A stretch of 42,507 nucleotides of DNA from Bacteroidota bacterium (lineage in GTDB: Bacteria; Bacteroidota; Bacteroidia; Bacteroidales; CG2-30-32-10). The position numbers and the translations under genes were made by a program. Shown in pieces: positions 8,699-42,064 of the stretch. The stretch is from NCBI GenBank assembly GCA_043801235.1, contig JAZDMF010000122.1, forward strand, positions 1 through 42,507. Reading direction: 5' to 3'. The notes below the pieces were generated by a model. The model had not been told where the DNA came from, did no database searches, and was given only the letters and a program-made list of their open reading frames with translations. Each line of letters starts with the position of its first letter. The first letter of the stretch is position 1.

Positions 8699-8741
8699 TT
8701 TTAATAAATTAAAATATATGAACTAATGAGACATTAAATAT

Positions 8742-8873: not shown

Positions 8874-8880
8874 CATTAAA

Positions 8881-9053
8881 TATACTGTAAACGGTTAAAA
8901 ATTTAACTTTTTGTTGAATAAAAATGCTGAATTGTTTTATTGTTAAATTGTTAAAAATTAACCAACAACAGTATGTATAAAGAATGAAAACAACAATTAA
9001 ACAATTTTAACCTGTCTGCCGACAAGGCAGGCAATATAGCCATTTAAAGTATA
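8881..9053. repeat. MITE-like intergenic element, copy 1 (second copy at 28236-28459)
   Basis: The 5' module TGTAAACGGTTAAAAATTTAACTTTTTGTTGAATAAAAATGCTGAATT (8886-8933) and the 3' module AGCCATTTAAAGTATA (9038-9053) both recur at 28236-28283 and 28444-28459. The ends are inverted repeats of each other (TATACTGTAAACGG / CCATTTAAAGTATA). Confidence 0.7.
9013..9033. repeat. GCCTGCC-type mini-palindrome (intergenic copy nested in the MITE-like element)
   Basis: TGTCTGCC (9013-9020) pairs with GGCAGGCA (9026-9033) with one transition. It lies inside a 29-nt segment (9013-9041) that is absent from the otherwise matching 3' module of the copy at 28436-28459. Confidence 0.75.
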
Positions 9054-9066
9054 TATATGATTTAAT

Positions 9067-9164
9067 CATTTTGTGAAATTTTGTGTTTTAGTGATTTTGT
9101 GGCGTTTTTCTTGCCACCAAAACACTAAAGCACAAACCTGCTTTCCGGCAGATATCACAAAAAT
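9067..9164. repeat. Long intergenic hairpin built from TTTTGTG / CACAAAA words (possible terminator of the exporter gene)
   Basis: The left arm 9067-9103 (CATTTTGTGAAATTTTGTGTTTTAGTGATTTTGTGGC) pairs collinearly with 9113-9164 (GCCACCAAAACACTAAAGCACAAA...ATCACAAAAAT). It lies just 3' of the minus-strand gene ending at 9219. Confidence 0.65.
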
Positions 9165-9218
9165 ATTATTTATCTATTATACAATCTATATTAATGCAGA
9201 CTTTTATTTTTACCAAAA

Positions 9219-13193: not shown

Positions 13194-14156
13194 TTAAATC
13201 AAATTATTCCTTATAGCATACATAACCAGATCGGCGGTATTTTTCACGCCTGTTTTATTGAGAAGGTTCGCCCTGTGCGTTTCGATGGTTCTCTTGCTGC
13301 GTTCAAGCTGCTGCGATATTTCCGCATTTGAAAGACCCTGACAAACCATGGAAAGAATTTTTATTTCCTTTTTTGACAATGATTCTGCACTTATGTCTTT
13401 TTCATCGGAAAATACTGATTTATTTTTCGTATTGTTGCATTCTGCCATATTTCCTATCAGCGAATCAGAGCCCTTATAATTTACCATGCCTGCATACAAT
13501 TCAACCGAAATTTTTTTGTTGTCTTTATGAAACGACTGAAATTTCACATGAACGGTATTTTGAATTTTATTCAAACACCTCTGAATTTTTTCAAGGGCAT
13601 AATCTTTATCGCTTCCGGTAACAAGCTTTTCAAAAGTCAGGGTCAATAAATCTTCGCGGGTCAATCCGAATATTTTTGAGCAGGCATCATTTACGAACTC
13701 GAATTTATTTTTACAATAAATAAATGCGCCGGTAAGAGGGTTATCAATAAGTGCATAGAATTTTTCATCATTTCTTTGCTGGATCTTTTCAAATTTATCC
13801 AAACGTGTTTTTATTGAAATCAAAAGTTCGTTGTAATCAAAAGGTTTGGTAATATAATCATCGGCCCCCAGTTGCATACCTGTTCTCATATCCTCTTTTT
13901 CAGCCTTGGCCGTTAGAAAAATCAGCGGGATGGTTGAAGTGGCCTTTATTTGCTGTATGGTTTTATAAAAATCATAACCATTCATGCGGGGCATCATAAT
14001 GTCGCATAAAATAAGGTCAGGCAGATGGTTCATTGCAAGCTGCAGCCCGATAAGCCCGTCTTCGGCCAAAAGAACATCGTATCCTTCTTCCTTAAGCAAA
14101 TCGCAGGTGTTTTCCCTTAAGGTTTTGTCGTCTTCAATAATCAAGATAGTTTTCAT
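13194..14156 (-). CDS. Response regulator, REC - PAS - LuxR-type HTH
   Basis: The REC domain is visible (LLAEDG..., phospho-acceptor context LILCDIMMP, ITKP). A central PAS-like segment follows, then a C-terminal LuxR/FixJ HTH (LSKKEIKILSMVCQGLSNAEISQQLERSKRTIETHRANLLNK). It is a paralogue of 14796-15773. Confidence 0.85.
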   Translation of the reverse strand: MKTILIIEDDKTLRENTCDLLKEEGYDVLLAEDGLIGLQLAMNHLPDLILCDIMMPRMNGYDFYKTIQQIKATSTIPLIFLTAKAEKEDMRTGMQLGADDYITKPFDYNELLISIKTRLDKFEKIQQRNDEKFYALIDNPLTGAFIYCKNKFEFVNDACSKIFGLTREDLLTLTFEKLVTGSDKDYALEKIQRCLNKIQNTVHVKFQSFHKDNKKISVELYAGMVNYKGSDSLIGNMAECNNTKNKSVFSDEKDISAESLSKKEIKILSMVCQGLSNAEISQQLERSKRTIETHRANLLNKTGVKNTADLVMYAIRNNLI

Positions 14157-14210
14157 AAGTCGTAGAAGTTAAAGTTATTAATGAGGGCATAAAATAGTTT
14201 GCCTCCCGCC

Positions 14211-14286
14211 ATGCTTCGATAGATTCAGCATGACGCTCTCGCGCTTGGTCACCTTGAGAAATGTCACACTAAGCCTGTCGAAGTGT
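14211..14286. repeat. Imperfect hairpin of the widespread type that translates as ...VTLSLSK...
   Basis: ATGCTTCGATAGATTCAGCATGAC (14211-14234) opposes GTCACACTAAGCCTGTCGAAGTGT (14263-14286). 15 of 24 positions are complementary and every mismatch is a transition. It sits inside a larger unit bounded by TTATTAATG (14176-14184) and CATTAATAA (14333-14341). Confidence 0.6.
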
Positions 14287-14632
14287 AAGCGAAAGGTAAG
14301 CGTGCATTTAAAAAGCCAAAATTTACCGCTCCCATTAATAATAGTTTAATGTATCGTTAGATGTAATTCGTTTGTTCAACTGTTCTATTGTCAGATTGTT
14401 CATTTGTTTCAGCCAGACTTCGGCGTGAGCTCAATCGAACGCCGGCGGATTCGTTCGTTTGTTTTGTTCCCATTGTGATGGCAGTGCAATAAACAATCAA
14501 AACCTGCCTGCAGAAACAAAATTAGCCTCATCAGAACCGTTACACGTCAGCAAAATTGCTTAATTTTATTTTTATTTTTTATGGGAGAATAGGTAATTTT
14601 ACTTACAGGTATAAAACTAATAAATTTTATTT

Positions 14633-14759
14633 ATGGGCATCTCGAAAATCTTTAAATCTCTTCGTTCGACTTCGTTTTGCAATTCCTCATGTACAATAGG
14701 TACACTGCGGATTACAAAACTTTGTCTGCCTCGATATTTTTTGTTTTTCAAGATGCCAT
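14633..14759. repeat. About 125-nt long imperfect hairpin
   Basis: The outer stem is ATGGGCATCTCGAAAA (14633-14648) with TTTTTCAAGATGCCAT (14744-14759). The inner stem is GTTTTGCAATTCCTCATGTAC (14674-14694) with GTACACTGCGGATTACAAAAC (14700-14720), which has four mismatches and two G:T wobbles, around a 5-nt loop. Confidence 0.65.
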
Positions 14760-14795
14760 ATACGTTTTTCAGAGACGCTCTTATGCCAAAGTTTG

Positions 14796-15773
14796 CTAAT
14801 CGACAGTGATTATTTTTTTCCGGAGAGCATACAGAACAAGCCCGGCAGTATTTTTAGCTTCTGTTTTATTGAGCAGGCTGGCGCGGTGAGAATCCACTGT
14901 TCGCAAGCTGATATGGCTGGCATCGGCAATTTCGGCCGTAGAGAGCCCTATACTAACCAGTTTCAGTATTTCAATTTCCCTCTTTGATAATTTATCGGTA
15001 TTATCTGAAACACCGAAAACTGTTTTTTTGTTTTCTTTTTCAGTTATGTCAACAGCATTTCCTACGAGTGCCGGAACACCTTTGAAACTGATTAAATTTG
15101 CATAAATTTCAACATACAGTTTTTTTTGAACATCTTTGTGAAAAGCCTCGAACTCAACCTGCACACATTCATGAATACCCTTCAAGCCTCTTCGTATTTT
15201 TTCTAAAACATGTTCTACCGATTCGTTTGCAATAATATCGGCAAAGCCCATATTTTCAAAATCATGTACGTCCAGTCCGAACATTTTCGAAAATGTACTG
15301 TTCACGTACTGAAATTTATTTTCGCAGTAAATAAAAACACCGAGCAGGGGGTTATCTATCAGGGCATAGAATTTTTCATCGTACGCTTTTTGAAAACGTT
15401 CCTGTTTTTCGAGCCGTATCCTTACGGTCTGAAGCAGTTCATTCAGGTCGAAAGGTTTTGTGATATAATCATCCGCGCCCAGCTGCATTCCGGTGCGCAT
15501 ATCTTCTTTTTCGCTTTTTGCAGTAATAAAAATAAACGGAATGGCCGATGTTGTTTTTATTTGCTGAAGGGTTTTAAATAATTCAAGGCCGTTCATTCCC
15601 GGCATCATGATATCGCAAAGTATCAGGTCGGGTATCCGGCTCATGGCCGATTGTACTCCTGTTATGCCATCGGCTGCAACGGATACACAGTAACCTTCTT
15701 CATTAAGAAAATCGGTCATGTTTTCACGTAATGTGATATCATCTTCAATGATAAGGATGTTTTTCTTTTTCAT
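14796..15773 (-). CDS. Response regulator, REC - PAS - LuxR-type HTH (paralogue)
   Basis: The architecture matches 13194-14156, with LILCDIMMPGMNG, ITKPFDLNELL and the C-terminal HTH LSKREIEILKLVSIGLSTAEIADASHISLRTVDSHRASLLNK. Confidence 0.85.
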   Translation of the reverse strand: MKKKNILIIEDDITLRENMTDFLNEEGYCVSVAADGITGVQSAMSRIPDLILCDIMMPGMNGLELFKTLQQIKTTSAIPFIFITAKSEKEDMRTGMQLGADDYITKPFDLNELLQTVRIRLEKQERFQKAYDEKFYALIDNPLLGVFIYCENKFQYVNSTFSKMFGLDVHDFENMGFADIIANESVEHVLEKIRRGLKGIHECVQVEFEAFHKDVQKKLYVEIYANLISFKGVPALVGNAVDITEKENKKTVFGVSDNTDKLSKREIEILKLVSIGLSTAEIADASHISLRTVDSHRASLLNKTEAKNTAGLVLYALRKKIITVD

Positions 15774-15798
15774 TTTTTATCGGATTAACTGTAAAATT

Positions 15799-15826
15799 GC
15801 TGGTTGCTGGTTACTGGTTGCTGGCT
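15799..15826. repeat. Tandem heptamer array GCTGGTT x4
   Basis: GCTGGTT GCTGGTT ACTGGTT GCTGGCT are read directly at 15799-15826. TTCGTTTGTTCG (15831-15842) and TTCGATTGTTTGTTGC (15847-15862) follow. I saw no complementary partner array nearby. Confidence 0.85.
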
Positions 15827-15862
15827 AAATTTCGTTTGTTCGGGTATTCGATTGTTTGTTGC

Positions 15863-18800
15863 TTATTCACTTTTTTTTTTATTATTCAGAATTTTTAAAA
15901 TAGGAAGAATAACAGTAACACAGGTTCCTTTATCTTTTTCAGACACTATTTTTATTTCGCCCGAACATTGATCGACAAAGCGTTTAACAATAGACAAACC
16001 GAAGCCCGTTCCTTTTATATTTTCCACATTCGACGCCCTGTAAAAAGGTTCATACAGGTGTTTCAGTTCTTCAGAAGGTATTCCGATCCCATAGTCGGTA
16101 ACTTCAAAAACGATTTGGTTATTGCTTTCGGATGCTGAAAAAATAATTTTTCTCGAATTACCACTGTATTTTATAGCATTTGAAATTATATTTCCAATAA
16201 TATGCCTGATAATATCTCTGTCTAAATTATAGTTTACTGCCGGCAGGTCATAGCGGGTAGTAAATCCGAATCCGGGTCCGAAAATCTGGATATTCTCATC
16301 AATCAGGGCATCCAGGAATTCCTTAAGGTCGATCATTGCAGGCTTCAGGGGAATTTTATCACTATGGTCCTTGTCAATGATTGAAACATCGTTCAGCAGG
16401 GTTTTCGTATGGTTAACAGCATCGATGATTTGTTTGAACATTTTCTCCTTTTTTTCATCCGTCCATTTATTATCATAACGCATCAGCAATTGCACACTTG
16501 AGAGAATTCCGGCAAGGGGCGTGCGGAATTCGTGAGAAACAGTGGAAATGAACTGCGCCTTCATTACATTCAGCCCTTTTTCTTTTTCCAGGTTTTTCAT
16601 TATTTCGTTTTCAATTTCCTTGTGCTTGGTAATATCAATAACAGTAACTACAACTCTTATCACTTCATTGTTCAGGAAAACAGGCGATATTTTTCTTTGC
16701 GTATAATATTTTTTTCCGAATACGTCATATTCCGATTCATTAATTACCTGAATGCCTTCTGAAAATACCTGTTCAATATTTCCATAGTCCTCAGTGTCAA
16801 GAAAAGTAAATACATCCTTCATGTACATCCCTAAAAGTTCTCTGCCATCACCACCCCTAGTAAAGATTTTTTTTAAAGAATCATTAGCGAACACTATCCT
16901 GTAATTGCGGTCAATAACATAAATCCAGTCGCTTATTGAATTTACGGTTGTATAATACAATTCCTCCGATCGTGAAAGTTCTTCGGTTCGAACAGTAACC
17001 TGTTTTTCCAAATTATCAAGAGTGTTTTTCAGTTCATTTGAAAGTTTTTTCTTTTCGGTAATATCGCGGGCTATGCCGAATACTTCGATGGGTTGCCCGT
17101 TTTTGTACCGAATCATGCTGTTCATTTCCAGATCGGTCACAGAGCCGAAATTATTTTTAAATTCAACTTCATAAACGGTGTTGGTTTTTTCGCCTTTAAG
17201 TTTTTTTGTTATGTTTTCAAAAGCAATTCCGGCTGTTTCTTCCGATATAAAATTCGTCATATTTCTATTTGAAAGGGCTTCCAGCTTATAACCGAGCAGC
17301 CTTTCGGCGCTGGGGCTAACAGAAGTAAAATTGCCTTTGAAATCCATGGTGTAAATAATATCGTTCGATGTGTCAAAAAGTTCTTTATACTTTTCAAAGG
17401 CTTTATTCATCTCTTCCTCGGCTTTTTTTCGTGCTTCTATATTCCTCATTGAGCCCACAATTCTACAGGGTTTATTTTCTTTGTCATATAAAAATTTTGA
17501 GGTAACCGAACAACGCTGCACACTTCCGTTCTTATCAAGCAGTGAAATTTCAAAATCAATAACAAATCCGTTTTTTGTCATTTCTTCGAAAAATTTTTGT
17601 CGGTCTGAAAAATCAGAATAAAGGCCAAGTATATTCCTGCCAATAAGTTCTTTCCTTTTATACAGGCTTATATTAACTACTGAAGGGCTTACTTCAAGTA
17701 TGATTCCGTCAAGTGTCGCTTCGTAATATACATCCTGAATGTTTTCAAAAATGCTTCTGAATTTTTTTTCGCTTTCCATCAGATCCTTTTCTGCCTGCCT
17801 GCGTTTCAGAGCCACGCCGATACTTTCGCTTATCCTCTCATAAAAATGGATCATATCAAGTGTAAAACAATTTTTTTTATGGTCATTTAATTGCAGAAGG
17901 CCTACAATCTCATTATCCGACCGGATAGGTATCAGCGCCACGGAATGGAAGCCTTCATGAATACATCGGTTCCGCGGATGAAGCCTTATATCTTCGGCAG
18001 CCGGAATGTCCAATATTGGTAATGAGTCATTTGTCCAGGCACTACCTCCTTCCGTAAAAAGAGGCCTTGACGGATCGGTCTTTCCGGATAATACCACACC
18101 GCATGTGCATTCCAGGCAGGGTTTGCCGTTCTCATCCCTGCAAAGCCCGCTTTCATTGCGAATAGTCAACGTATTTTCCGTCAGCAGAAAATCATCAGAA
18201 AAACCTTTCTGGTCAAAATAAGGGAAGTCATCGCCGCTTCTCAGGCGGACACCAACCGCATCGAAACCTGTTTCACGCTTGATCGCTGTGAGAATACTGC
18301 TGATCGTTTCATCAAAAGCAGTTGGCACATTAAGAATGCTCAGAATTTCAGATAAAAGATGTTGCCATCGTTCAGACTGCTTGCGTTCAGTAATGTCTAT
18401 TACTGAATTAACTGAAAATTGGTTACCCTTTAAGGCGATTAATTCAGAAGAGGTTAAGATACTTTTTTTCTCACCGCTTTTTGTTGTAATCTCATTCTCA
18501 ACAAGCCTTAAATATCCTTTACTTACTAACTCTTCACGAAGCTTGTTTCTTGCTTCTGTGTCAATAATTTTTAATTCTTCTACGTTATACCCGACCGCTT
18601 CTTCTCTTGAAAAACCCATTAATTTGCTCCACACATCATTAATTTCAGTGAGTTTTCCGTTGGATACCCTTGCAATACTTACAGCAATTGGACTGGCTCT
18701 AAATATTTTTGCGAAAAGCTCCTCGCTTTCGCGCAGCTCTTCCTCCGCCTGCTTGCGTTCGGTGATGTCAAGAATAGAGACAACACTTTGCTGTGTTTCC

Positions 18801-19885
18801 GGAATCATATTAATATCAAGGAACGAAACACGGATATCACCTTTTCTATTGACGAGTTTAACTTCATATTTTTTTGGTGCAGCAGCGGGATCCTGTCGCC
18901 GGAGATTGTGGTTCTTTATCATTTCCTGCAAACTCTCAGGGGCAACATATTGAGTCCATTTTTGCCCAATAAGTTCTGAAGGAGTATAACCCGTGAGCTG
19001 AAGACACTCGTTGTTTGCCATGATGATAGTACGATCTTCTTCAACAATCAATGTAGCTGTACCGGTTGATTCAAAAATTGCCTGGTACTTTTCATGGCTC
19101 CTGCTAAGTGTTTCTTCCGACAGCTTGCGTTCGGTGATGTCCTGTACTGTACCAAACAATTTTATTACTTTTCCATTTTCATCCTTAACAGGTCTTATTG
19201 TTGAACTATAATATACTTTTCTGCCACTTGGTAATATAGGCTCAATTTCATTGTTGAATTCCAAATTTGAATCTATAGATTGCCGGGTAAAATTTCGTAA
19301 AGCTTCCGCTTGTTTTTCAGTATAGTACTTCGCTTCTTCTTCTACTGTTGGATTACCGAGATTAATATCTCTTTCATACAATTTAAAAACCTGGTCAGAC
19401 CATGTGATATTCTGTGTAAAAATATCGAATTCCCAATTGCCTATTTTTCCAATACTTTGAGCTTCTTTTAACTTTCTCTCGCTCTCACGCAGTATTTCTT
19501 CTGTATGCCTGCGCTCTATTGAATATTGAATAGCTTTTCCAAGCAGGTCGGGAATCAGGCTTTGTTTCGTTATGTAATCCTGTGCGCCTTCTTTGATAAA
19601 CTTTAAAGATAATTCCTCATCTTTCAGACCACTTACCAGAATAACCGGTATGCTGCCACAGCAATCCATTACTTTTTTAAATGTCTGCTGTCCTGTGCTG
19701 TCGGGCAGGTTAAGGTCGAGCAAAATAACATCAAAGTTGTTTTTATGAATTTGTTCGCAACCGTCTTTCAGGGTGCCGGAAGTGAAAAGGTTATAATTAT
19801 AGAGGTTGGACTCCTTAAGCATTTCACTGACTAACCGTACATCGGAAAGATTGTCCTCGATTAAAAGAATGGTGATGATTTTCAT
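15863..19885 (-). CDS. Hybrid sensor histidine kinase: N-terminal REC, multiple PAS, GAF, PAS, HisKA, HATPase_c
   Basis: The N-terminal REC (ILLIEDN..., VILLDLNLPD) is followed by repeated PAS/PAC-type segments ending in ITERK. A GAF-like block comes next, then the H-box STVSHEFRTPL and the N/G boxes (NAIKYS, DYGIGI, GTGFGLS). The likely start is ATG 19885 (MKIITILL), 8 codons inside the ORF-track start. Confidence 0.9.
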   Translation of the reverse strand: MKIITILLIEDNLSDVRLVSEMLKESNLYNYNLFTSGTLKDGCEQIHKNNFDVILLDLNLPDSTGQQTFKKVMDCCGSIPVILVSGLKDEELSLKFIKEGAQDYITKQSLIPDLLGKAIQYSIERRHTEEILRESERKLKEAQSIGKIGNWEFDIFTQNITWSDQVFKLYERDINLGNPTVEEEAKYYTEKQAEALRNFTRQSIDSNLEFNNEIEPILPSGRKVYYSSTIRPVKDENGKVIKLFGTVQDITERKLSEETLSRSHEKYQAIFESTGTATLIVEEDRTIIMANNECLQLTGYTPSELIGQKWTQYVAPESLQEMIKNHNLRRQDPAAAPKKYEVKLVNRKGDIRVSFLDINMIPETQQSVVSILDITERKQAEEELRESEELFAKIFRASPIAVSIARVSNGKLTEINDVWSKLMGFSREEAVGYNVEELKIIDTEARNKLREELVSKGYLRLVENEITTKSGEKKSILTSSELIALKGNQFSVNSVIDITERKQSERWQHLLSEILSILNVPTAFDETISSILTAIKRETGFDAVGVRLRSGDDFPYFDQKGFSDDFLLTENTLTIRNESGLCRDENGKPCLECTCGVVLSGKTDPSRPLFTEGGSAWTNDSLPILDIPAAEDIRLHPRNRCIHEGFHSVALIPIRSDNEIVGLLQLNDHKKNCFTLDMIHFYERISESIGVALKRRQAEKDLMESEKKFRSIFENIQDVYYEATLDGIILEVSPSVVNISLYKRKELIGRNILGLYSDFSDRQKFFEEMTKNGFVIDFEISLLDKNGSVQRCSVTSKFLYDKENKPCRIVGSMRNIEARKKAEEEMNKAFEKYKELFDTSNDIIYTMDFKGNFTSVSPSAERLLGYKLEALSNRNMTNFISEETAGIAFENITKKLKGEKTNTVYEVEFKNNFGSVTDLEMNSMIRYKNGQPIEVFGIARDITEKKKLSNELKNTLDNLEKQVTVRTEELSRSEELYYTTVNSISDWIYVIDRNYRIVFANDSLKKIFTRGGDGRELLGMYMKDVFTFLDTEDYGNIEQVFSEGIQVINESEYDVFGKKYYTQRKISPVFLNNEVIRVVVTVIDITKHKEIENEIMKNLEKEKGLNVMKAQFISTVSHEFRTPLAGILSSVQLLMRYDNKWTDEKKEKMFKQIIDAVNHTKTLLNDVSIIDKDHSDKIPLKPAMIDLKEFLDALIDENIQIFGPGFGFTTRYDLPAVNYNLDRDIIRHIIGNIISNAIKYSGNSRKIIFSASESNNQIVFEVTDYGIGIPSEELKHLYEPFYRASNVENIKGTGFGLSIVKRFVDQCSGEIKIVSEKDKGTCVTVILPILKILNNKKKSE

Positions 19886-19983
19886 CTGTACAAAATTTTG
19901 AATGTGCATAAAATTAACGTGTTGGGAAACATGATTTTTTTGTTACTCGATCCCGCAACCGCAACACTGGCTCGCTCGTGATA

Positions 19984-20421
19984 TTACCGGTTAGGAAGTT
20001 TTACAATTGTGAGCCAGAAATCTTCAATGGATTTAACCACTTCCATGAATTTATTCAGGTCGAGCGGTTTTGTGATATAGCAGTTCGCATGCAGGTTATA
20101 AGTTTTCAGAATATCTTCTTCTGCTTTTGAAATTGTCAAAATAACCACCGGTATCCTTTTCAGGTCATCGTCTTCTTTTATTTCCGCAAGAACTTCACGT
20201 CCGTCTTTTTTTGGCAGGTTAAGATCAAGAATGATCAGGTCGGGACGGGGAGCATCTTTATAATCATTTTTCCTGAAAAGAAAATCGGTTGCCTGTACGC
20301 CGTCATACACAATATGAATTTTGTTTTTGACTTTACTATCTTTCAATGATTCCTGTGCCAGCCGGGCATCGCCGGGGTTGTCTTCTATCAGAAGAATGTC
20401 AATAATTTTTAAGTTTTCCAT
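19984..20421 (-). CDS. Stand-alone receiver-domain response regulator (Rcp1/CheY-like)
   Basis: This is a 145-aa REC-only protein with ILLIEDNPGD, the phospho-acceptor context LIILDLNLPKKDG and CYITKP. Confidence 0.9.
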   Translation of the reverse strand: MENLKIIDILLIEDNPGDARLAQESLKDSKVKNKIHIVYDGVQATDFLFRKNDYKDAPRPDLIILDLNLPKKDGREVLAEIKEDDDLKRIPVVILTISKAEEDILKTYNLHANCYITKPLDLNKFMEVVKSIEDFWLTIVKLPNR

Positions 20422-20447
20422 TTTTTATGATTTTTGATTAATGTAAC

Positions 20448-20535
20448 TCTTTACCACGGAGGCACGGATTACACGGAGGTTCACGGAGAAAAACGCTCTG
20501 TGTTTCTCTGTGTAATCTGTGTCTCAGTGGTTTTT
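20448..20535. repeat. Word-array hairpin flanking GxxExxY cassette 2 (3' side of the gene)
   Basis: The left arm has CACGGAG/CACGGAT/CACGGAG/CACGGAG starting at 20455, 20463, 20472, 20482 (spacing 8-9-10). The right arm has CTCTGTG/CTCTGTG/ATCTGTG/CTCAGTG starting at 20496, 20506, 20515, 20523 (spacing 10-9-8). On the plus strand three of the four helices need one G:T wobble. The element begins TTTACCAC and ends CAGTGG followed by a T run. Confidence 0.9.
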
Positions 20536-20946
20536 TTATTCTTTAGGCAATTTTGCAAACATTTCAGTAACAAGTGAAACTAAATGTTCTTTAATATTTT
20601 CACAATTAAAATTTATTAATAATCCTTTAGGTTTTCCTGTAAGTTTCAAATACGATAAAAGTTGCGCTTTGTATAACGGAATCATTATTTCTACTGCTTT
20701 CTCTTCAACAATAATTAAATCGTTTACAACTAAATCAAGTTTTAAAATTCCGCCCAAATCTTTTCCTTTATAGTGTACAGGAACATATATTTGTGACTTT
20801 ACAGATAATCCAGCGCTTCTCATTTCATCAATAAAACAGATATCATAAACCGATTCGAGCAAGCCTGGACCAAGGTGTTTGTGCACTTCAATAGCACAAC
20901 CAATTATCTTATATGAAATTTCATTTATGTGTTTTTGTGTAATCAT
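20536..20946 (-). CDS. GxxExxY family protein (PD-(D/E)xK nuclease-like fold), second copy
   Basis: This 136-aa ORF has LGPGLLESVY and LDLVVNDLIIVEEKAV. It is about 71% identical to 2213-2626. Confidence 0.85.
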   Translation of the reverse strand: MITQKHINEISYKIIGCAIEVHKHLGPGLLESVYDICFIDEMRSAGLSVKSQIYVPVHYKGKDLGGILKLDLVVNDLIIVEEKAVEIMIPLYKAQLLSYLKLTGKPKGLLINFNCENIKEHLVSLVTEMFAKLPKE

Positions 20947-20958
20947 ATCGTTTTTATT

Positions 20959-21046
20959 TATTTACCACTGAGGTACAGAGAGCACGGAGGTACACGGAGA
21001 AATTCTCTGTGGTTCTCTATGCTCTCCGTGTCTCCGTGGTTTTTTA
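20959..21046. repeat. Word-array hairpin flanking GxxExxY cassette 2 (5' side of the gene)
   Basis: The left arm has CACTGAG/TACAGAG/CACGGAG/CACGGAG starting at 20966, 20974, 20983, 20993 (8-9-10). The right arm has CTCTGTG/CTCTATG/CTCCGTG/CTCCGTG starting at 21005, 21015, 21024, 21032 (10-9-8). It has the same ends as 20448-20535 (TTTACCAC... ...CGTGGTTTTTT) and abuts the kinase stop codon at 21047. Confidence 0.9.
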
Positions 21047-22729
21047 TCATTTTTTTAATGTAAAATAAAAAGTTGTTCCTTCATTTTCTTTCGATTCAAA
21101 CCATATTCTTCCGCCATGCCTTTCAATGATACGTTTGCATATTGAAAGACCTATGCCCGTTCCGGTATATTCTTCTTTGGAATGCAGGCGCTGAAAAATA
21201 GTAAATACCTTGTCATGATATTGCATATCTATTCCGATACCATTATCCCTGACGGCAAACTCATAAAAATCATTTTTCGTTTTACAGGAAATATGAATCT
21301 TAGGCAATTCGGGTTTCTTTTTATATTTGATTGCATTTTCAATAAGGTTCTGAAAAACACGCCCAATCTGTGATTCATCAACATTCAAAACTGGCAACTC
21401 TTCGTTTGTGACCAAAGCTGTGTTCGATGTTATCATTTGGTGAAGGTTCGAAACAGCCTGCCCAAGAATCAGGGAAATATCAACCCTTGTGAATTCCTTT
21501 CCCTGCGAAGATATCCTTGAATAGTCAAGCAGGTCGTTAATCAGTTTTTGCATCCGGCTTGCTCCTTCAACTGCATATTGAATAAAATCGTTTGCATCCT
21601 GGTCCAATTTGTCTTTGTATCTTCTTTCAAGCAATTGTGTATAGCTCGATACCATTCTTAACGGCTCCTGCAAATCGTGCGAAGCTACATAGGCAAATTG
21701 TTCCAGTTCCTGGTTTGAGCGCTGCAAATCAGCCAGAGCATTCATGAGTTGTTCTTCAGCTTCCCTTTCTTTTGTTACATCAAGGTTTGTTGACTGATAC
21801 CCGATAAGCTCACCATCTGCATTTCGAAGACTTGATGCAAATCCACGGGAGATAAAGGTTCTTCCATCAAATGTCTTAGCTTTAAATTCGCCTTCCCATG
21901 CATCATATTTTGCCAGCGCTTCAAGCACAGGAGTTGCATCAGCTGGATTGGCGAAGAATGAACCAACGCTTTTACCGATAGCTTCATCTATGTTAGAATA
22001 GCCCCACATTTTCAGGAACGATGGGTTCACGTGTGTAATTATTCCTGCGCTGTCGGCGATACTCTGGGAAGCAATTGAATCATCAAACACTTTATTTTTA
22101 ATTCGCAGGTCGGCTTCGGCTTGCTTGCGCTCGTTTAATAATTTATTAAGTTCTTCATTAGTAATGATTAACCTTTCCCTTTCCCTTTCCCTTTCCCTTT
22201 CCCTTTCCTTCTTAGCAATGATCAACTCTGTTGCGCGTTTTGCCTTTTCTTTGTTGGCAATGATTAGTTCGGCAGCACGTTTCTCTTTTTCTTTGTTGGC
22301 AATGATCAATTCAGCAGCACGTTTTTCTTTTTCTTTGTTTTGAAAGGCAAGTTCTTTGTTGGCTATTATTAACTCTGCAGCACGTTTCTCTTTTTCTTTG
22401 TTCTGAAATACAAGTTCTTTGTTAGCAATGATTAGTTCGGCAGCACGTTTTTCTTTCTCTTTATTTTGAAAAGCGAGTTCTTTGTTGGCAATGATTAGTT
22501 CGGCAGCACGTTTTGCTTTCTGTTTATTTTTAAAGGCAAGTTCTTTGTTGGCAATGATTAACTCTGCTGCCCATTTTTCTTTCTCTTCGTTTTGAAAGGC
22601 AATGTCTTTATTGGCGCGTTCGAGGAGTTCCTGTGTAATCTTTAATTTTTCTTCACTTTCTTTCAGCCTGTTTACTTCCTGCTCCAGTTTCTGCAAGTCG
22701 TTTATAAGTTCTTCTCTGGTTTTGCTCAT
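21047..22729 (-). CDS. Sensor histidine kinase: coiled-coil tandem repeats, PAS, HisKA, HATPase_c
   Basis: The H-box FAYVASHDLQEPLRMV and the boxes NAIKY, DNGIGI and GTGIGLS are present, with one PAS-like segment. The N-terminal 190 aa are dominated by repeats of AAELIIANKELAFQNKEKEKR. Confidence 0.9.
   Translation of the reverse strand: MSKTREELINDLQKLEQEVNRLKESEEKLKITQELLERANKDIAFQNEEKEKWAAELIIANKELAFKNKQKAKRAAELIIANKELAFQNKEKEKRAAELIIANKELVFQNKEKEKRAAELIIANKELAFQNKEKEKRAAELIIANKEKEKRAAELIIANKEKAKRATELIIAKKERERERERERERLIITNEELNKLLNERKQAEADLRIKNKVFDDSIASQSIADSAGIITHVNPSFLKMWGYSNIDEAIGKSVGSFFANPADATPVLEALAKYDAWEGEFKAKTFDGRTFISRGFASSLRNADGELIGYQSTNLDVTKEREAEEQLMNALADLQRSNQELEQFAYVASHDLQEPLRMVSSYTQLLERRYKDKLDQDANDFIQYAVEGASRMQKLINDLLDYSRISSQGKEFTRVDISLILGQAVSNLHQMITSNTALVTNEELPVLNVDESQIGRVFQNLIENAIKYKKKPELPKIHISCKTKNDFYEFAVRDNGIGIDMQYHDKVFTIFQRLHSKEEYTGTGIGLSICKRIIERHGGRIWFESKENEGTTFYFTLKK
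22160..22624 (-). repeat. In-frame tandem repeats (63-nt and 42-nt units) encoding the ELIIANKELAFQN(K/E)EKEKRAA motif
   Basis: About five 21-aa units and three shortened 14-aa units (AAELIIANKEKEKR) are read directly in the translation, aa 36-190. The DNA units are highly similar, for example the recurring GCAATGATTAGTTCGGCAGCACGTTT. Confidence 0.9.
22172..22207 (-). repeat. Hexanucleotide microsatellite (CCTTTC)6 encoding (ER)6
   Basis: Six perfect CCTTTC units are seen on the plus strand. On the coding strand they read GAAAGG x6, giving ERERERERERER. Confidence 0.95.
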
Positions 22730-35947: not shown

Positions 35948-35954
35948 CAAAAAA

Positions 35955-35978
35955 AGCAGGAGAAATTCCTGCTTTTTT
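35955..35978. terminator. Bidirectional rho-independent terminator between ssb and the fibre gene
   Basis: The stem AGCAGGA (35955-35961) pairs with TCCTGCT (35967-35973) around a 5-nt loop. An A run precedes it and a T run follows, so it is terminator-like on both strands. Confidence 0.8.
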
Positions 35979-36059: not shown

Positions 36060-38177
36060 TTATTTGGACTTAAGAATTTTTATTTCATCTTTCAGGATTT
36101 CAATTTCTGCCTGTTGTTCCTGCATGGCTTTTACAAGTACTGGTATCAAACCAATATAGTTAATTCCCTTGTATTCAATGTTTGCATCTTCTTTGGCTTC
36201 TCCCGGATGTACACTGTTTTCGACCAAAGCAGGGAATACCTTTTCCATTTCCTGTGCTATAAATCCAATCTGCGTACCTGATGCAAAACCCATAAACGGA
36301 TATTCTTCAGTTTTCATATTATAGGTAACAGGCCTTAACTTTAGTACATTATCAAGTGCACTGGAATAGTTGGTAACATCTTTTTTGAATTTTTCATCGG
36401 AAGCTAAAGTCCAGGTTCCTGTATACGCACCATTGCCACTGCAATATAAGCCATATGCTGTACCACCGGTTGTGCTTGCATAACCATAAACGCCATAAAC
36501 AGGAGCTGCGGCAGTAGATGAAGCATAGCCGGATACACCGAAAACACTATTAGTTGAAGTATTACTTGCTGTTCCTTCCACACCAGTAAATTTACTTTCA
36601 AAAAAGCCGCCATACCCATACCAGTTAGCAGCATTGCTTTTACCATATACGGCTATTCCGTCATTAGTTCCGGTATTGGTATATTCGGCATGAACAGCAT
36701 GGGCAGTGTAATCGGCGCTGTCAGTAGTAAAATAACCGGCATAACGGTTGGTAGAAGCGACATGGAGTTTAGTAGATCCTGTGGGAGTGGCAGTTCCAAT
36801 TGCAACAATACCAGCCTTGGTAATGGTCATTCGTTTTACGGGATCTGTACCAGCTCCGCTTGGTCGGGTCCAGAAATTTAGATATGAGGAATAATTGCCT
36901 GCATCAGTTCCTGCTGCAACAATATTACATTCGTTACCTGTGCCAGCTATCAAAGCAGAATGAAGCAAAATTCCTCCGGCATTACCGACATTAGCGTCAG
37001 TAGCATTAAATGCAGTAGTTGCACCACCTACTAATAACTGGGTATTTTCGGAAGTATTATACACCTGTAAGGCACCTAAAGGCGTTGATGTTCCAACACC
37101 GATTTTTGTTCCATTATTAAATAAATTACTTGTTGCAATCCAGTTTGTACCATCATGACGTAAAGTTTGTCCTGATGTTCCTGTAGGAAGGGTAGATGGT
37201 GTGTCCCATTGAACAAAGGTATTCGGACTTGTTCCATGCACTGTCAAAACCTGTCCATCAATCCCATGACTGCCGTTAAAATCACGAATATGTCCCCAAT
37301 ACAAGTCAAAATAATTTGCGTTAGAGCTTCCGAGTGAAAAAATATTCGCATTAGTTATGCTCATTCCATTCATATTAATGTTATAGGTACCTGCGCTATT
37401 GCCTAATGCCAATGTTTGTGTTAATGTCTGGCTGGCTGTTCCTGTCGGGCCAGTGGCACCGGTAGCACCTGCTGCACCAGTAGCACCATTTGCTCCGGCA
37501 GTACCAGTAGGTCCGGCTGCTCCGGTTGCTCCATTTGTTCCATTAGCCCCTGTGACACCTGCTGGCCCTGTTGCTCCATTGCCTCCAGTAGCACCATTGC
37601 TTCCAGCAACACCTGTAGGACCGGTCGGACCCGTCGGGCCCATTCCTGTACCTGTTGGACCCGTTGCGCCGGTAGCACCTGTGGTACCTGTTCCGGTGGC
37701 TCCGGTAGCTCCAATAGCTCCTGCAGGACCTGTTGGACCGGTAGGGCCTGTAGTTCCTGATGTACCGGCATTGGCTGCATACATGGCAAAAGGAACAGTT
37801 AACAACTGAGATGTTCCCATGTTAGTATAAACTGATCCTCCTGCAGGATCCATTTCAACCTGCAGCCAGTAATTGCCCGAACTCCATGCAATGGCGCTGA
37901 ATGTTCCGGTAATAACTGTTCCCTGCCCCAGGCTTATTGTAAATAATCCAAACTGGTTTGTTGTGGTTGAATGCGATTCGGAATACACAATGGTTCCTGA
38001 TGATGAACCCTGATGAACTGAAAGGCGCAGCCCTACTGCCTGACTGATAAGTAAATTTCCCGAAGCATCTCTTGCCACAGCCTGGTAGTTGAATGCCTGC
38101 GGCACCTGTGCGCTCAACTGGCCGATGAATACAAGCATCAGCATAGCACTTAAAAAAGTAATGATTGTTTTTTTCAT
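36060..38177 (-). CDS. Secreted collagen-like fibre protein with C-terminal tail-fibre-type (peptidase S74-like) intramolecular chaperone domain, copy A (705 aa)
   Basis: The signal peptide is [23 protein letters not shown]|QVP. A conserved N-domain follows, then 35 G-X-Y triplets (aa 138-248, mostly G-x-T). Next come a variable beta-rich centre and a Gly/Tyr-rich block. The last 113 aa (SDEKFKKDV...LRPVTYNMK...[15 protein letters not shown]...[26 protein letters not shown]) resemble the self-cleaving chaperone domain of phage endosialidases and tail fibres. Confidence 0.8.
37434..37766 (-). repeat. Collagen-like G-X-Y coding repeat of fibre A
   Basis: The translation reads [25 protein letters not shown]...[12 protein letters not shown] with two short register interruptions (GTG-TT-GAT and GTG-M-GPT). 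The tract is locally GC-rich and is open in several frames on both strands. Confidence 0.9.
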
Positions 38178-38196
38178 GTTTTATTCTGTTTTTTTA

Positions 38197-38715
38197 TTAA
38201 TAAACTAAATTTATTTTGTTATAATTTATTTGTTTTTCGCCTTTGGAATTTTCAGTTGTGAGTTCAAGCATGTATATTCCCTGGCTGAAACTGCTGATGT
38301 CGAAGGTCACAGTATTCGTGCCTGCCGATTGTAAAACAGCTTTTGTAAGAACTACCTGCCCTACCAGATTGTACATTATTATTATATTCTCCCCGCTGCT
38401 GTTGCTGATATAACTCAGCGTGAAAATGCCGCTGGTAGGATTCGGATAAATCAGTATGTCACCCGTTACTGTTGGATTTTCAGGAATGCCAACAACATAA
38501 TCTTCGGGTTGCTGGAAACCCTGGGTAAGAAAATTACCTCCTGCAGTGAATGTTTGCACCATGGTCATTTCAGCTACTGTGAATGAAAGCATGGCGCTGC
38601 CCGTTGAGTAAAATCCTCCGGAGGAAGATATTACAGTAGGCGACAGTGTTTGCGATTGTAAAATTCCTGATATTAATATCAGGGCAAACAGCAAAACCGA
38701 TAATTTATTTTTCAT
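38197..38715 (-). CDS. Small secreted protein with T9SS C-terminal sorting domain, copy A (172 aa)
   Basis: The signal peptide is ...GILQS|QTL. A passenger of only about 75 aa follows (LSPTVISSSGGFYSTGSAMLSFTVAEMTMVQTF...LTQGFQQPE). The C-terminal domain is Por-secretion-tail-like (ILIYPNPTSGIFTLSY...GIYMLELTTENSKG...INLVY). Confidence 0.8.
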   Translation of the reverse strand: MKNKLSVLLFALILISGILQSQTLSPTVISSSGGFYSTGSAMLSFTVAEMTMVQTFTAGGNFLTQGFQQPEDYVVGIPENPTVTGDILIYPNPTSGIFTLSYISNSSGENIIIMYNLVGQVVLTKAVLQSAGTNTVTFDISSFSQGIYMLELTTENSKGEKQINYNKINLVY

Positions 38716-38739
38716 ATTATATTGTTATTTATTTTGCTG

Positions 38740-38765
38740 CAAATCTATGCATTTTTACAGTCAAA
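38740..38765 (-). promoter_or_regulatory. Candidate promoter of the proximal small-protein/fibre pair
   Basis: The minus strand reads TTTG (38765-38762), a 14-nt spacer, then TAGATTTG (38747-38740, matching TAnnTTTG). The box lies 25 nt upstream of the ATG at 38715. The spacer is shorter than I would expect for the Bacteroides consensus. Confidence 0.35.
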
Positions 38766-38861
38766 TAAAAAAAAAATCAGTTTAGCCGTTTATTTTTTTA
38801 TTTCCATCCCTGAAATTTACTGCCTTTTAATTATTAAACAATTTTCATTCAAAGAATATTT

Positions 38862-38897
38862 TAAAAAAAAATAACAGACTTTTGCAAGCCTGTTATT
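38862..38897 (-). terminator. Rho-independent terminator after fibre gene B
   Basis: On the minus strand AATAACAG (38897-38890) pairs with CTGTTATT (38877-38870) around a 12-nt loop. A T7+ run follows (plus-strand A run 38863-38869). It starts 20 nt downstream of the stop at 38917. Confidence 0.8.
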
Positions 38898-38916
38898 TTT
38901 ATAAGAGAAACTAATT

Positions 38917-40542
38917 TTATTTACTTTCTAATTCTACAATCCTGTTTTCGAGTTGTTCGATCTTAGCATTCTGTTCCTGCATGGCTTTTACAAGTACAGG
39001 TATCAAACCAATATAGTTAACTCCTTTATATTTAACATCCGGGTCTTCTTTTGCAGCTCCGGGATGTACTCCATTTTCAACCAATGTAGGGAATACTTTT
39101 TCCATTTCCTGTGCAATAAAGCCAATCTGTTTACCTGATGCAAATCCCATAAATGGATATTCTTCAGTTTTCATAGAATAAGAAACCGGCCTTAATTTTA
39201 ACACATTATCGAGTGCACTGGAATAGTTGGTAACATCTTTTTTGAATTTTTCATCGGAAGCTAAAGTCCAGGTTCCTGTATAAGCACCATTACCACTGCA
39301 ATATAAGCCATATGCTGTACCACCTGTTGTGGCTGCATAACCATAAACGCCATAAACAGGAGCAGCTGCGGATGAAGTAGCATAACCGTATACACCATAA
39401 AGACTATTAACAGAAGTATTAGTTGCTGTTGAATAAACTCCTATATATTTACTTTCAAAATAGCCACCATATCCATACCAATCAGCAGCATTGCTTTTAC
39501 CATACACAGCTACTCCGTCATAACTACCTGTATTGGTATATTCAGCATGAACAGCGTGACCCAAATAATATGCTGTATCAGTAGTAAAATAGCCTGCATA
39601 TTTTTTTGAAGCTTTCACATTCAGCAATGAAGAAGTATTGGGGGTAGTGGTTCCAATACCAACCCTACCCTGGCCATCAATTGTTAGTCTTCTTATACTA
39701 TTGGTTCCAAAATGCATTGGAACGGGGTCATATGCCCACATATTCATTTCTGTAGATTTTGCTTCAACAAAACCTGTATATGTTCCGCTAACATAAAAAT
39801 CGAGGGTTGGATTTAAAGAATTATTAACTGCAATAGCATCCTGAACCTGCAGAATGTCAGAACCAAATGGGGTGGTAGTACCAACAAGCACTCTTGAGCC
39901 GTTATCATACATAATAGAATTACCTACTGCTGTAGCCGATGTGAACTTTGCAACATAATTAGTTGTTCCGTTTACTGTACCTGAACCGGCAGGACCTGTT
40001 GGGCCTGTAACACCAGCAAGGCCTGTTGCACCATTCGCTCCGGCAGGACCTGTTGCACCATTAGCACCTGCAGGACCTGTAAGGCCAGCAGGGCCAGTAG
40101 CTCCGGTTGCACCAGTAGTTCCTGATGTACCTGCATTGGCTGCATACATGGCAAAAGGAACTGTGAGCAACTGGTCGGTTCCCATATTGGCATAGGTAGT
40201 GCCACCTGTAGGATCCATTTGTACCTGTAACCAATAATTTCCAGTACTCCAGGTAATAGCGCTGAAAGTTCCTGATACTACTGTGCCCTGACCTAATGCC
40301 ACTGTAAACAAACCAAACTGGTTAGTAGTGGGTGAATGAGTTTCGGAATACACTATAGTTCCCGAAGATGACCCCTGATGAATTGTGAGTTTTAATCCTA
40401 TAGTCTGGCTTGCCAATAAAGCTCCTGAACTATTGCGGGCAACGGCCTGATAATTGAATGCCTGAGGAACCTGTGAATATGCATGACCTACGATCATTAA
40501 CATCAACAGCGCTCCAATAAAAGAGATAATTGTTCTTTTCAT
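38917..40542 (-). CDS. Secreted collagen-like fibre protein with C-terminal tail-fibre-type (peptidase S74-like) intramolecular chaperone domain, copy B (541 aa)
   Basis: The N-domain and the last 230 aa or so match copy A. The collagen tract is shorter (16 G-X-Y triplets, aa 138-185). The central part is unrelated to that of copy A. Confidence 0.8.
   Translation of the reverse strand: MKRTIISFIGALLMLMIVGHAYSQVPQAFNYQAVARNSSGALLASQTIGLKLTIHQGSSSGTIVYSETHSPTTNQFGLFTVALGQGTVVSGTFSAITWSTGNYWLQVQMDPTGGTTYANMGTDQLLTVPFAMYAANAGTSGTTGATGATGPAGLTGPAGANGATGPAGANGATGLAGVTGPTGPAGSGTVNGTTNYVAKFTSATAVGNSIMYDNGSRVLVGTTTPFGSDILQVQDAIAVNNSLNPTLDFYVSGTYTGFVEAKSTEMNMWAYDPVPMHFGTNSIRRLTIDGQGRVGIGTTTPNTSSLLNVKASKKYAGYFTTDTAYYLGHAVHAEYTNTGSYDGVAVYGKSNAADWYGYGGYFESKYIGVYSTATNTSVNSLYGVYGYATSSAAAPVYGVYGYAATTGGTAYGLYCSGNGAYTGTWTLASDEKFKKDVTNYSSALDNVLKLRPVSYSMKTEEYPFMGFASGKQIGFIAQEMEKVFPTLVENGVHPGAAKEDPDVKYKGVNYIGLIPVLVKAMQEQNAKIEQLENRIVELESK
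39988..40131 (-). repeat. Collagen-like G-X-Y coding repeat of fibre B
   Basis: The translation reads [48 protein letters not shown]. Confidence 0.9.
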
Positions 40543-40564
40543 TTTTCTATTCTTTTTTTAATTT

Positions 40565-41083
40565 TTAATAAACTAAATTTATTTTGTTATAATTTATTTG
40601 ATTTTCGCCTTTGGAATTTTCAGTTGTGAGTTCAAGCATGTATATTCCCTGGCTGAAACTGCCGATATCAAAGGTTACCGTGTTGGTTCCTTCCGATTGC
40701 AAAACAGCTTTTGTAAGAACCACCTGCCCGACAAGGTTGTACATTTTAATTACATTTTCCCCGCTGCTGTTGCTGAAATAATTCAGCGTAAAAATGCCAT
40801 TGGTGGGATTCGGATAAATCAGTATGTCACCCGTTACTGTTGGATTTTCAGTAATGCCAACTATATAATCTTCGGGTTGCTGGAAACCCTGGGTAAGAAA
40901 ATTACCTCCTGCAGTAAATGTTTGCACCATGGTCATTTCAGCCACTGTGAACGACAGCATGGCACTGCCCGTAGAGTAAAATCCCCCGGAGGAAGATATT
41001 ACAGTGGGCGATAACGTTTGTGATTGCAGTATGCCTGTAAAAAGCATAAGTGCAAAAAACACATTCCAGATTTTAGTTTTCAT
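40565..41083 (-). CDS. Small secreted protein with T9SS C-terminal sorting domain, copy B (172 aa)
   Basis: In the mature part it differs from 38197-38715 at only about 10 positions, while the signal peptide is diverged. The YPNP...GIYMLEL C-terminal sorting domain is the same. Confidence 0.8.
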   Translation of the reverse strand: MKTKIWNVFFALMLFTGILQSQTLSPTVISSSGGFYSTGSAMLSFTVAEMTMVQTFTAGGNFLTQGFQQPEDYIVGITENPTVTGDILIYPNPTNGIFTLNYFSNSSGENVIKMYNLVGQVVLTKAVLQSEGTNTVTFDIGSFSQGIYMLELTTENSKGENQINYNKINLVY

Positions 41084-41117: not shown

Positions 41118-41144
41118 CAAAGTTAATTTTTTTTAAAAATCAAA
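41118..41144 (-). promoter_or_regulatory. Candidate promoter of the distal small-protein/fibre pair
   Basis: The minus strand reads TTTG (41144-41141), a 15-nt spacer, then TAACTTTG (41125-41118). The box lies 35 nt upstream of the ATG at 41083. The layout matches the candidate at 38740-38765. Confidence 0.35.
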
Positions 41145-41182: not shown

Positions 41183-42064
41183 TTACCATTCCAGGCTGTC
41201 CTCAAGCCTTATCTCATCCAGATCTTCTTTGCTGAGGCCGTGCCAAGTGCAACCTTTTTTTGCGCATATAAAAAAGTCGATCATTTTTGTTCGGGCGCTG
41301 ACAAGTATTTTCGCGATCTGTGTTCCGCATTTTTCACATTTTCCTTTATGTACTATCAGGCTTTTATCGCAGTGGAAACAACTGATATCGCCCACACTCT
41401 GATCTTCCGGCAGGAAAATAGTAGATTTTGAAGAAAAAACATTGAGGTAAGGGCTTAAAAGTATGTAACCTGATTCTCCTTCTTTCTTTACAATTTTTAT
41501 TTTAAGCATATCATCTTCGATCAACGATTTTTTGCAATGGGGACAATAGGTTTGAAGGAAGCTTCCGGATTCAATAATTTCTTTCCGTTTTTCTTTTTGC
41601 TTTTTTGTCTTTCTCGTTACTTTGTTATTTACAATTTCATCGGAATGAAAATGAACTTTCATCCCAAACTCTTGATGTAGTTTTGCAAGTGCACCCGAAA
41701 GGTCTACAAAACTAATATTATGATTTTTACAACCATTGCGCGAACAAAAATTAATTTTACCTCCAATTTCAAGGAGTACTGAAGACATAGGAGCACGGCA
41801 GGCAGTGCAAAGTTCCTGAGAGGTAATTATAGATTTGCAATGGGGGCATAAAAAAACGGTGACGACACCAGGTTCAATCGTTATTTCGGAATAATAATTA
41901 CAGCTTTCGTATATTGAGCTTAATCTTATAAAGCCCGATTTTCCGGGTATTTCGATATTAAGTTGGATACTGGGTTCATTATCTACTTTATGCTCATTAT
42001 CCATAAGTGATTTGTTGCACACAGGGCATTTAACGTGCAATGAAATAAAATTGAAATTGTTCAT
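41183..42064 (-). CDS. Internally duplicated multi-zinc-ribbon protein, function unknown (293 aa)
   Basis: Two homologous halves each carry CPxCxKSL ... G(F/Y)I(R/L)LS ... C(P/F)HC ... CxxC ... Cx4Cx2H. They are joined by a Lys/Arg-rich linker (KVTRKTKKQKEKRKE). I recognised no enzyme motif. Confidence 0.6.
   Translation of the reverse strand: MNNFNFISLHVKCPVCNKSLMDNEHKVDNEPSIQLNIEIPGKSGFIRLSSIYESCNYYSEITIEPGVVTVFLCPHCKSIITSQELCTACRAPMSSVLLEIGGKINFCSRNGCKNHNISFVDLSGALAKLHQEFGMKVHFHSDEIVNNKVTRKTKKQKEKRKEIIESGSFLQTYCPHCKKSLIEDDMLKIKIVKKEGESGYILLSPYLNVFSSKSTIFLPEDQSVGDISCFHCDKSLIVHKGKCEKCGTQIAKILVSARTKMIDFFICAKKGCTWHGLSKEDLDEIRLEDSLEW

Follow-up and report, generated by a model that had tools for sequence, protein, structure and literature searches.

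Two tandem copies of a two-gene module occupy positions 36,060 to 41,083 of a 42,507-nt stretch of DNA (hereafter the window) from a Bacteroidota bacterium (Bacteroidales; CG2-30-32-10; assembly GCA_043801235.1, contig JAZDMF010000122.1). Each copy pairs the gene of a small protein carrying a type IX secretion (T9SS) sorting domain with the gene of a long, collagen-stalked fibre. Our preferred reading of domain composition and gene linkage, to which we assign a probability of roughly 0.45, is that the module would encode a cell-surface trimeric adhesive fibre and a dedicated T9SS-targeted adaptor. The system is best described as part known and part new. The fibre is of the collagen-stalked and S74-processed kind that resembles the mosaic adhesive trimers (MATs), and what appears to be new is its phylum-wide partnership with a miniature T9SS cargo protein, the mechanism of which we infer.

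On the minus strand, open reading frames (ORFs) follow each other in the order small partner B, fibre B, small partner A and fibre A, with gaps between small and fibre genes of 22 nt in module B and 19 nt in module A. Order, lengths and gaps agree with the original prediction, which had been made from the sequence letters. ORF calls and domain profiles define the following features:

40565..41083, minus strand: small partner B, 172 aa; predicted signal peptide aa 1-21, passenger aa 22-72 (nt 40868-41020), linker aa 73-88, type A T9SS C-terminal domain (CTD) aa 89-172.
38917..40542, minus strand: fibre B, 541 aa; predicted signal peptide aa 1-22, N-domain aa 23-135, 17 G-X-Y triplets, divergent centre, Gly/Tyr block aa 317-428, S74 chaperone aa 429-541 (nt 38920-39258).
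38197..38715, minus strand: small partner A, 172 aa; predicted signal peptide aa 1-21, passenger aa 22-72 (nt 38500-38652), linker aa 73-88, type A T9SS CTD aa 89-172 with the invariant K167.
36060..38177, minus strand: fibre A, 705 aa; predicted signal peptide aa 1-22, N-domain aa 23-135 (nt 37773-38111), collagen aa 136-250 (9+23 triplets), centre aa 251-480, Gly/Tyr block aa 481-592, S74 chaperone aa 593-705 (nt 36063-36401) with a predicted cut before S593.

The linkage of the two genes extends well beyond this window. When small genes with room downstream were collected (98 genes, from 88 sources), 81 were followed on the same strand and within ~120 nt by a gene encoding the fibre N-domain. 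At least five 'solo' small genes have the fibre immediately upstream instead, and some of the remaining ones head arrays of the form small, fibre, fibre, a single small gene being able to precede two or three fibres. The reverse sample consisted of 84 fibre genes with room upstream, drawn independently with the N-domain alignment, and 59 of these (~70%) cluster with a small partner. The canonical small gene lies directly upstream in 30 cases, a divergent (type-2) small T9SS protein in 7 and a small CTD protein without recognisable motif in 3. In 6 other loci the small gene is directly downstream, in 11 the fibre stands behind another fibre of an array, and in 2 the small gene is found elsewhere in the locus; the other 25 fibres have no partner within 6 kb. 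A first, narrow hidden Markov model of the passenger had left 35 fibres unpaired, 10 of which were seen on inspection to have a divergent small T9SS partner. Surveying one genome per species yielded at least 524 confirmed relatives in Bacteroidales, Chitinophagales, Saprospiraceae, Flavobacteriales, Sphingobacteriales and one metagenome-assembled genome of Chlorobiota. The adjacency that the original prediction had proposed to survey in Bacteroidota is thus conserved in both directions of sampling (81/98 forward; 59/84 reverse). The linkage is strong and ancient and is not obligatory in cis, and the survey supports the view that the pairing is a conserved functional unit across Bacteroidota and not a product of chance.

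The chromosomal site of the window, defined by ssb, mutY, hup and the RNase G gene, is a copy-number hotspot holding from 0 to 4 fibre genes among the loci compared. Four modules occupy this site in one related locus (L001), three modules and an orphan small gene in another (L002), and two modules in the window itself. A further locus (L003) contains a degraded module in which a fragmented fibre lies beside an insertion sequence of the rve family, three loci (L006-L008) retain a lone small gene and no fibre, and in L004 the module is located elsewhere on the chromosome. Fibres with and without an S74 domain are intermixed within arrays.

The tandem duplication claimed for the window is real, with DNA repeats between the two modules at 75-85% identity. 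Divergence between copies is distributed very unevenly along the proteins. The small partners are 89% identical overall, with 100% identity in the passenger (aa 22-72) and 90% in the CTD. In the fibres, the N-domain (79%), the Gly/Tyr block (81%) and the S74 domain (82%) have been retained, while identity falls to 36% in the collagen stalk (32 versus 17 triplets) and to 20% in the centre. The ends of the fibres are conserved, and stalk and centre have been swapped.

Domain profiles give the fibres a clear modular structure. Peptidase_S74 (PF13884) matches both with 57.5 and 55.4 bits (Pfam cut-off 22; E 1e-15), and the SDxxxK motif of the family is present as SDEKFK at S593 in fibre A and S429 in fibre B. 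The S74-like C-terminus had been sized at 113 aa, and cleavage at the predicted positions would free exactly 113 C-terminal residues in both fibres. The Collagen profile likewise exceeds its cut-off of 27.2 in both (39 and 30 bits), as expected of the stalk that had been read from the repeats. Neither Pfam nor NCBIfam profiles detect a T9SS sorting domain in either fibre, again in agreement with the earlier reading. The N-domain (113 aa) was modelled as a 7-strand beta-sandwich (pLDDT 89.8, pTM 0.82), for which fold searches of PDB and BFVD returned generic sandwiches with TM values of at most 0.54 and no convincing relative. These fibres belong to a very large mosaic family. The N-domain directly follows the leader in all 120 of the 120 top matches, and the C-termini of relatives sharing it are S74, C1q, YadA-like, PF07603 or PF26696 domains, or nothing recognisable. 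Cleavage of the leaders just before Gln had been predicted for all four proteins. The Gln at mature position +1 is indeed invariant in both the fibre and the small-protein families and, judged from the alignments, its combination with a hydrophobic leader fits the Bacteroidetes Q-rule for signal-peptide cleavage (PMC5837995). The outer-membrane-vesicle proteome of Tannerella forsythia (PMC10682907) includes a 362-aa 'tail fiber domain-containing protein' (WP_046825792.1); should it turn out to have this N-domain, it would provide proteomic evidence for an envelope location.

The small partners do carry the T9SS sorting domain ascribed to them. PF18962 (Por_Secre_tail) matches the two proteins with 53.5 and 52.5 bits (cut-off 27) and TIGR04183 with 48 and 46.5 bits (cut-off 23). 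An AF2 model of the small protein places seven strands between residues 87 and 170 (pLDDT 70-88), and K167, which lies six residues from the C-terminus, is shared without exception by the 36 sequences compared. Type A CTDs are seven-strand beta-sandwiches with a conserved C-proximal Lys (PMC10994853). The passenger had been put at about 75 aa; the alignment instead shows ~50 conserved residues followed by a variable linker of ~16 residues. The segment Q22-D72 is nearly invariant and constitutes the most conserved part of the protein, with variation in the linker and the CTD. In the same model residues 22-84 have pLDDT values below 50, and when it was used in a fold search the CTD drew only generic Ig-like sandwiches, the passenger no match at all. 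A passenger that is conserved and has no autonomous predicted fold is what would be expected of a segment that folds on a partner.

The family of the small partner is tight. At E ≤ 1e-3 it comprises 378 clusters, and nearly all of the 120 listed are ~172 aa long. A full-library search with the 52-residue passenger returned 440 clusters, nearly all of 160-175 aa with the motif at about residues 20-72. A few larger proteins also bear the passenger at their mature N-terminus: in P0367 (703 aa) it precedes Ig-like repeats and a T9SS CTD, and in P0325 (273 aa) and P0362 (265 aa) it accompanies a dockerin-like module and no CTD. The passenger can therefore be viewed as a portable N-terminal module. 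The small partner appears undescribed; we found no description of it in the literature searched, although absence there is no proof of novelty.

The divergent type-2 partner is ~155-161 aa long and combines the pattern Q..IVASGGNASGSGGS.SYSIGQ...(12-18)...EGVQQPYE with a T9SS CTD. Its gene directly precedes those of N-domain fibres with the N-terminal sequence QAPxKMSYQAVVRN (L134, L149, L156, L158, L161, L163 and L165), and the subtype is frequent among cultured Chryseobacterium and in Winogradskyella. Chryseobacterium sp. 3008163, whose genome is complete (CP033070.1), has a type-2 gene (positions 8001-8480 of locus L171) 5 nt upstream of an N-domain gene, at about 2,321,850-2,324,700 of that genome. 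The fibre of this locus (8486-10836) is called as two products, one of 148 aa with the N-domain and another of 605 aa rich in Gly/Tyr repeats, and may be frameshifted or truly split.

The architecture of the fibre is not an orphan one, and its place is among the MAT-like fibres reported in 2024 (PMC10769870). That study (Caulton et al. 2024, PMC10769870) reported 21 fibres of Bdellovibrio bacteriovorus in which a signal peptide is followed by a beta-rich domain that is conserved and ~130 aa long, a trimeric stalk and a tip that is either S74 (with SDxxxK) or non-S74. Its authors proposed that the N-domain is positioned next to the cell surface, where it would bind to some surface element (PMC10769870). 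Because their Table S3 already lists members from the FCB group, including a 704-aa collagen-like protein of Saprospiraceae and an S74-like protein of Dokdonia (PMC10769870), the architecture is of a known kind. The NCBIfam model of the MAT N-domain (NF053851) matches 50 of 51 members of our family with E values between 1e-7 and 1.5e-11; scores are 31-36 bits against a cut-off of 60, and matches cover only profile positions 12-78 of 162. The N-domain is consequently a remote homologue of that of MATs, and not a member at NCBI's threshold. Common to both systems are a signal peptide (a predicted one in our fibres), the conserved beta-rich N-domain right after it, a long and, in our fibres, presumably homotrimeric stalk, interchangeable C-terminal parts, several paralogues per genome and an N-domain without structural relative in PDB. 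They differ in that the stalk here is collagen and the similarity of the N-domain remote, and in that the host is a non-predatory-looking Bacteroidales lineage with cargo of T9SS type. Furthermore, no small partner gene is mentioned for MATs, and the term 'T9SS' occurs 0 times in the supplements of the study (PMC10769870).

Other known systems resemble one or the other half of the module. The chaperone of phage endosialidases and tail fibres (PF13884) shares with our fibres the SDxxxK motif, a C-terminal position after a beta-rich trimeric region and a predicted 113-aa fragment with helical tail. Unlike the phage proteins, the fibres described here are cellular and predicted to be Sec-exported, and a non-phage N-domain replaces the virion-attachment domain. 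The collagen-like proteins Scl1/Scl2, Lcl and BclA also present a globular part on a triple-helix stalk of G-X-Y (mostly G-X-T) repeats; our fibres differ from them in having other N- and C-terminal domains and no LPXTG or other covalent anchor. Membership in the Scl/Lcl families was considered and rejected, given that scores with the NCBIfam equivalog models are ~30-52 against cut-offs of 325-500 and the collagen repeat alone is matched. On the side of the small partner, the relevant comparison is with type A T9SS cargo, examples of which are RemA, ChiA and gingipains. The small partner is like them in its predicted Sec leader with Gln at +1, a 7-strand CTD scoring above cut-offs and a C-proximal Lys. 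It is unlike them in that its passenger has ~50 residues and no predicted fold, enzymatic domain or adhesive domain, and in being almost always encoded beside the gene of a CTD-less fibre.

Gene linkage and architecture suggest that the small protein exports or anchors the fibre, and the adaptor reading can be spelled out as a sequence of putative steps. In the periplasm the S74 domain would drive trimerisation of the fibre and then cut itself off before S593 (fibre A) or S429 (fibre B). The passenger, unable to fold alone, would fold onto the fibre N-domain, probably by beta-strand addition and with one adaptor per chain. The CTD of the adaptor could then take the adaptor-fibre complex through the SprA/PorV translocon. 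Following removal of the CTD, the new C-terminus of the adaptor would be joined to surface lipopolysaccharide, tethering the base of the fibre to the cell with the variable part pointing outward. Tandem modules with retained ends and swapped middles would supply a repertoire of binding specificities. The geometry of the two proteins fits such an arrangement, since the fibre has its base at the N-terminus and the C-terminus would be the point at which the adaptor is tethered. The fullest version of this proposal, in which the small protein is a detachable T9SS signal with no other task than to grip the folded, self-processed trimer by its N-domain, carry it through the translocon and then stay behind as a lipopolysaccharide-linked socket, is doubtful in our judgement. 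The concept has precedents in hitchhiker or piggyback transport, in which a folded partner without a signal travels bound to a signal-bearing subunit (PMC9251779). The small and large subunits of Tat-exported hydrogenases and PTS1 piggybacking into peroxisomes are alike in concept only, the machinery being different.

Several observations weigh against an adaptor that both exports and anchors. Bdellovibrio MAT fibres reach the surface without any T9SS. About 30% of the sampled fibres (25 of 84) have no partner within 6 kb, lone small genes persist at the syntenic site in L006-L008, and no T9SS component occurs among the larger ORFs scanned in the 42.5-kb window. A mirror-tree comparison gave a correlation of 0.44 between passenger and N-domain and of 0.56 between CTD and N-domain, with a partial correlation of 0.19; with the CTD as control and with crude slicing of the passenger, there is no signal of co-evolution beyond shared ancestry. 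The literature searched contained no instance of a CTD-less partner being carried by T9SS cargo, and type A cargo can be released instead of anchored (PMC10994853).

In an alternative reading the small protein would serve only as an anchor, exported alone by the T9SS, fixed to lipopolysaccharide and used as a docking site by the N-domain of a fibre that crosses the outer membrane by the separate route used by MATs. MAT fibres are surface-exposed in an organism lacking a T9SS, and their N-domain has been proposed to bind a surface element; the ~30% of Bacteroidota fibres without partner in cis point the same way. So does the presence of the passenger at the head of a larger T9SS cargo protein (P0367) and of dockerin-like proteins, as might be the case for a generic docking module. 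However, we know of no other export route in Bacteroidota for a fibre that is Sec-exported, is not a lipoprotein and has no CTD, and the gaps of 19-22 nt, with the tight co-transcription they imply, suggest stoichiometric assembly of both products before export. On balance we hold this separate-route explanation to be unlikely. A functional link of another nature, in which the small protein is neither anchor nor cargo carrier and helps to assemble the N-domain in the periplasm, is secreted as an accessory or tip subunit, or is a separately acting secreted peptide co-regulated with the fibre, would account for the gene linkage itself, for a passenger without autonomous predicted fold, for the missing specific co-evolution signal and for arrays with a single small gene ahead of two or three fibre genes. 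A purely periplasmic factor would need no T9SS CTD, yet essentially all members of ~170 aa keep theirs, and the extreme conservation of the passenger parallels that of the N-domain and not that of the variable tips. Such a role is, in our estimate, slightly less likely still.

The similarity of the fibres to phage proteins also had to be weighed, because the locus could be a remnant or satellite of the tail-fibre locus of a phage, tailocin or contractile injection system, with no cellular function. Stalk, centre and S74 domain do match many phage tail-fibre families, PHROG profiles reaching E values of 1e-28, and there is also a match to the tip of the T4 long tail fibre (6f45). The PHROG matches set in at about residue 127, and none of them extends into the N-domain. 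For the small protein, neither a PHROG match nor a relative in the 2.9 million viral contigs of IMG/VR was obtained, and N-domain genes were recovered in at least 590 metagenome stretches from cellular loci as opposed to three IMG/VR contigs. Moreover, the predicted Sec leaders on both proteins are incompatible with cytoplasmic assembly of a virion. No phage genes were encountered among the larger ORFs scanned in the window, nor in related loci, all of which consist of housekeeping DNA. The non-phage context noted in the original prediction thus holds, and an origin from a prophage or extracellular contractile injection system was rejected; a functionless phage remnant is highly improbable. 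The three IMG/VR contigs (L168, L169 and L170) carry fibre genes with the N-domain, the match lying at about 9950-11500. A canonical small partner accompanies the fibre in L170, and a divergent one in L169. Nearby genes, among them DUF5131, a DnaB-type helicase and an IS1595 transposase, lend the contigs a mobile-element flavour, and the ORFs tested include no recognisable virion genes. The contigs may represent phages, other mobile elements or flanking host DNA.

Signals for transcription were located by eye, as follows:

41118..41125, minus strand: Bacteroidota-type -7 box TAACTTTG upstream of small partner B, a match to the consensus only.
38740..38747, minus strand: Bacteroidota-type -7 box TAGATTTG upstream of small partner A.
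38862..38894, minus strand: intrinsic-terminator-like hairpin (AACAG...CTGTT) with T-run, 3' of fibre B.
35949..35978, strand not assigned: bidirectional terminator (A-run, GCAGGA/TCCTGC hairpin, T-run) between fibre A and the convergent ssb.

The boxes were judged against the consensus TAnnTTTG. The promoter-like box of the earlier reading has a counterpart upstream of each small gene, and both the terminator after fibre B and the one common with ssb are readable in the sequence. With a promoter box and a terminator of its own, each module looks like a separate transcription unit. The terminator of fibre B was not listed by the pattern scan because its stem contains just 2 G-C pairs. Note that a generic scan for sigma-70 promoters and terminators returned no more sites than in shuffled sequence, so that these calls rest on sequence reading and not on statistics.

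The remainder of the window has the appearance of an ordinary chromosome. The larger ORFs scanned encode SufBD/SufS, a polyprenyl synthase, RmlA, an MMPL transporter, PAS and two-component regulators, fumarase, subunits of an acyl-CoA carboxylase, RF, RecX and RNase G. The left neighbours of the modules named earlier (ssb, mutY and hup) are borne out by synteny with annotated loci, through which HU, MutY and SSB were identified. No tRNA genes were found in the window. Upstream of the modules (41183-42064, minus strand) lies the gene of a 293-aa protein with several CxxC zinc-ribbon motifs and sub-threshold Pfam matches only; L002, L003 and L006 conserve it as a syntenic neighbour on the upstream side of the modules, among genes for Fe-S/NAD(P)H oxidoreductase and rubrerythrin. 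A dense signalling cluster (13194-22729, minus strand) contains two RR-PAS-LuxR regulators, a 1348-aa multi-PAS hybrid histidine kinase, a stand-alone receiver and a PAS histidine kinase, with a gene of the PD-(D/E)XK nuclease family (20536-20946) wedged within. A 387-aa ORF (11812-12975, plus strand) matches no Pfam family at E ≤ 1e-5.

Cargo of the T9SS is defined by a sorting domain in cis. If our preferred reading of a T9SS-targeted adaptor is true, a phylum-wide class of fibres without CTD, encoded beside a mini-cargo bearing one, would widen the rules of type IX secretion so as to include sorting in trans. Were the fullest version of the proposal to hold, the T9SS would gain its first hitchhiker mechanism, and MAT-type N-domains, in Bacteroidota at least, would have their long-sought partner. 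The MAT study left open the binding target of the conserved fibre base, and the module offers a testable candidate in culturable Bacteroidota (Chryseobacterium). Finally, variable arrays with conserved ends and swapped middles are typical of diversifying surface-recognition systems, so that a role of these modules in the adhesion of environmental Bacteroidota to other cells or to substrates is probable.

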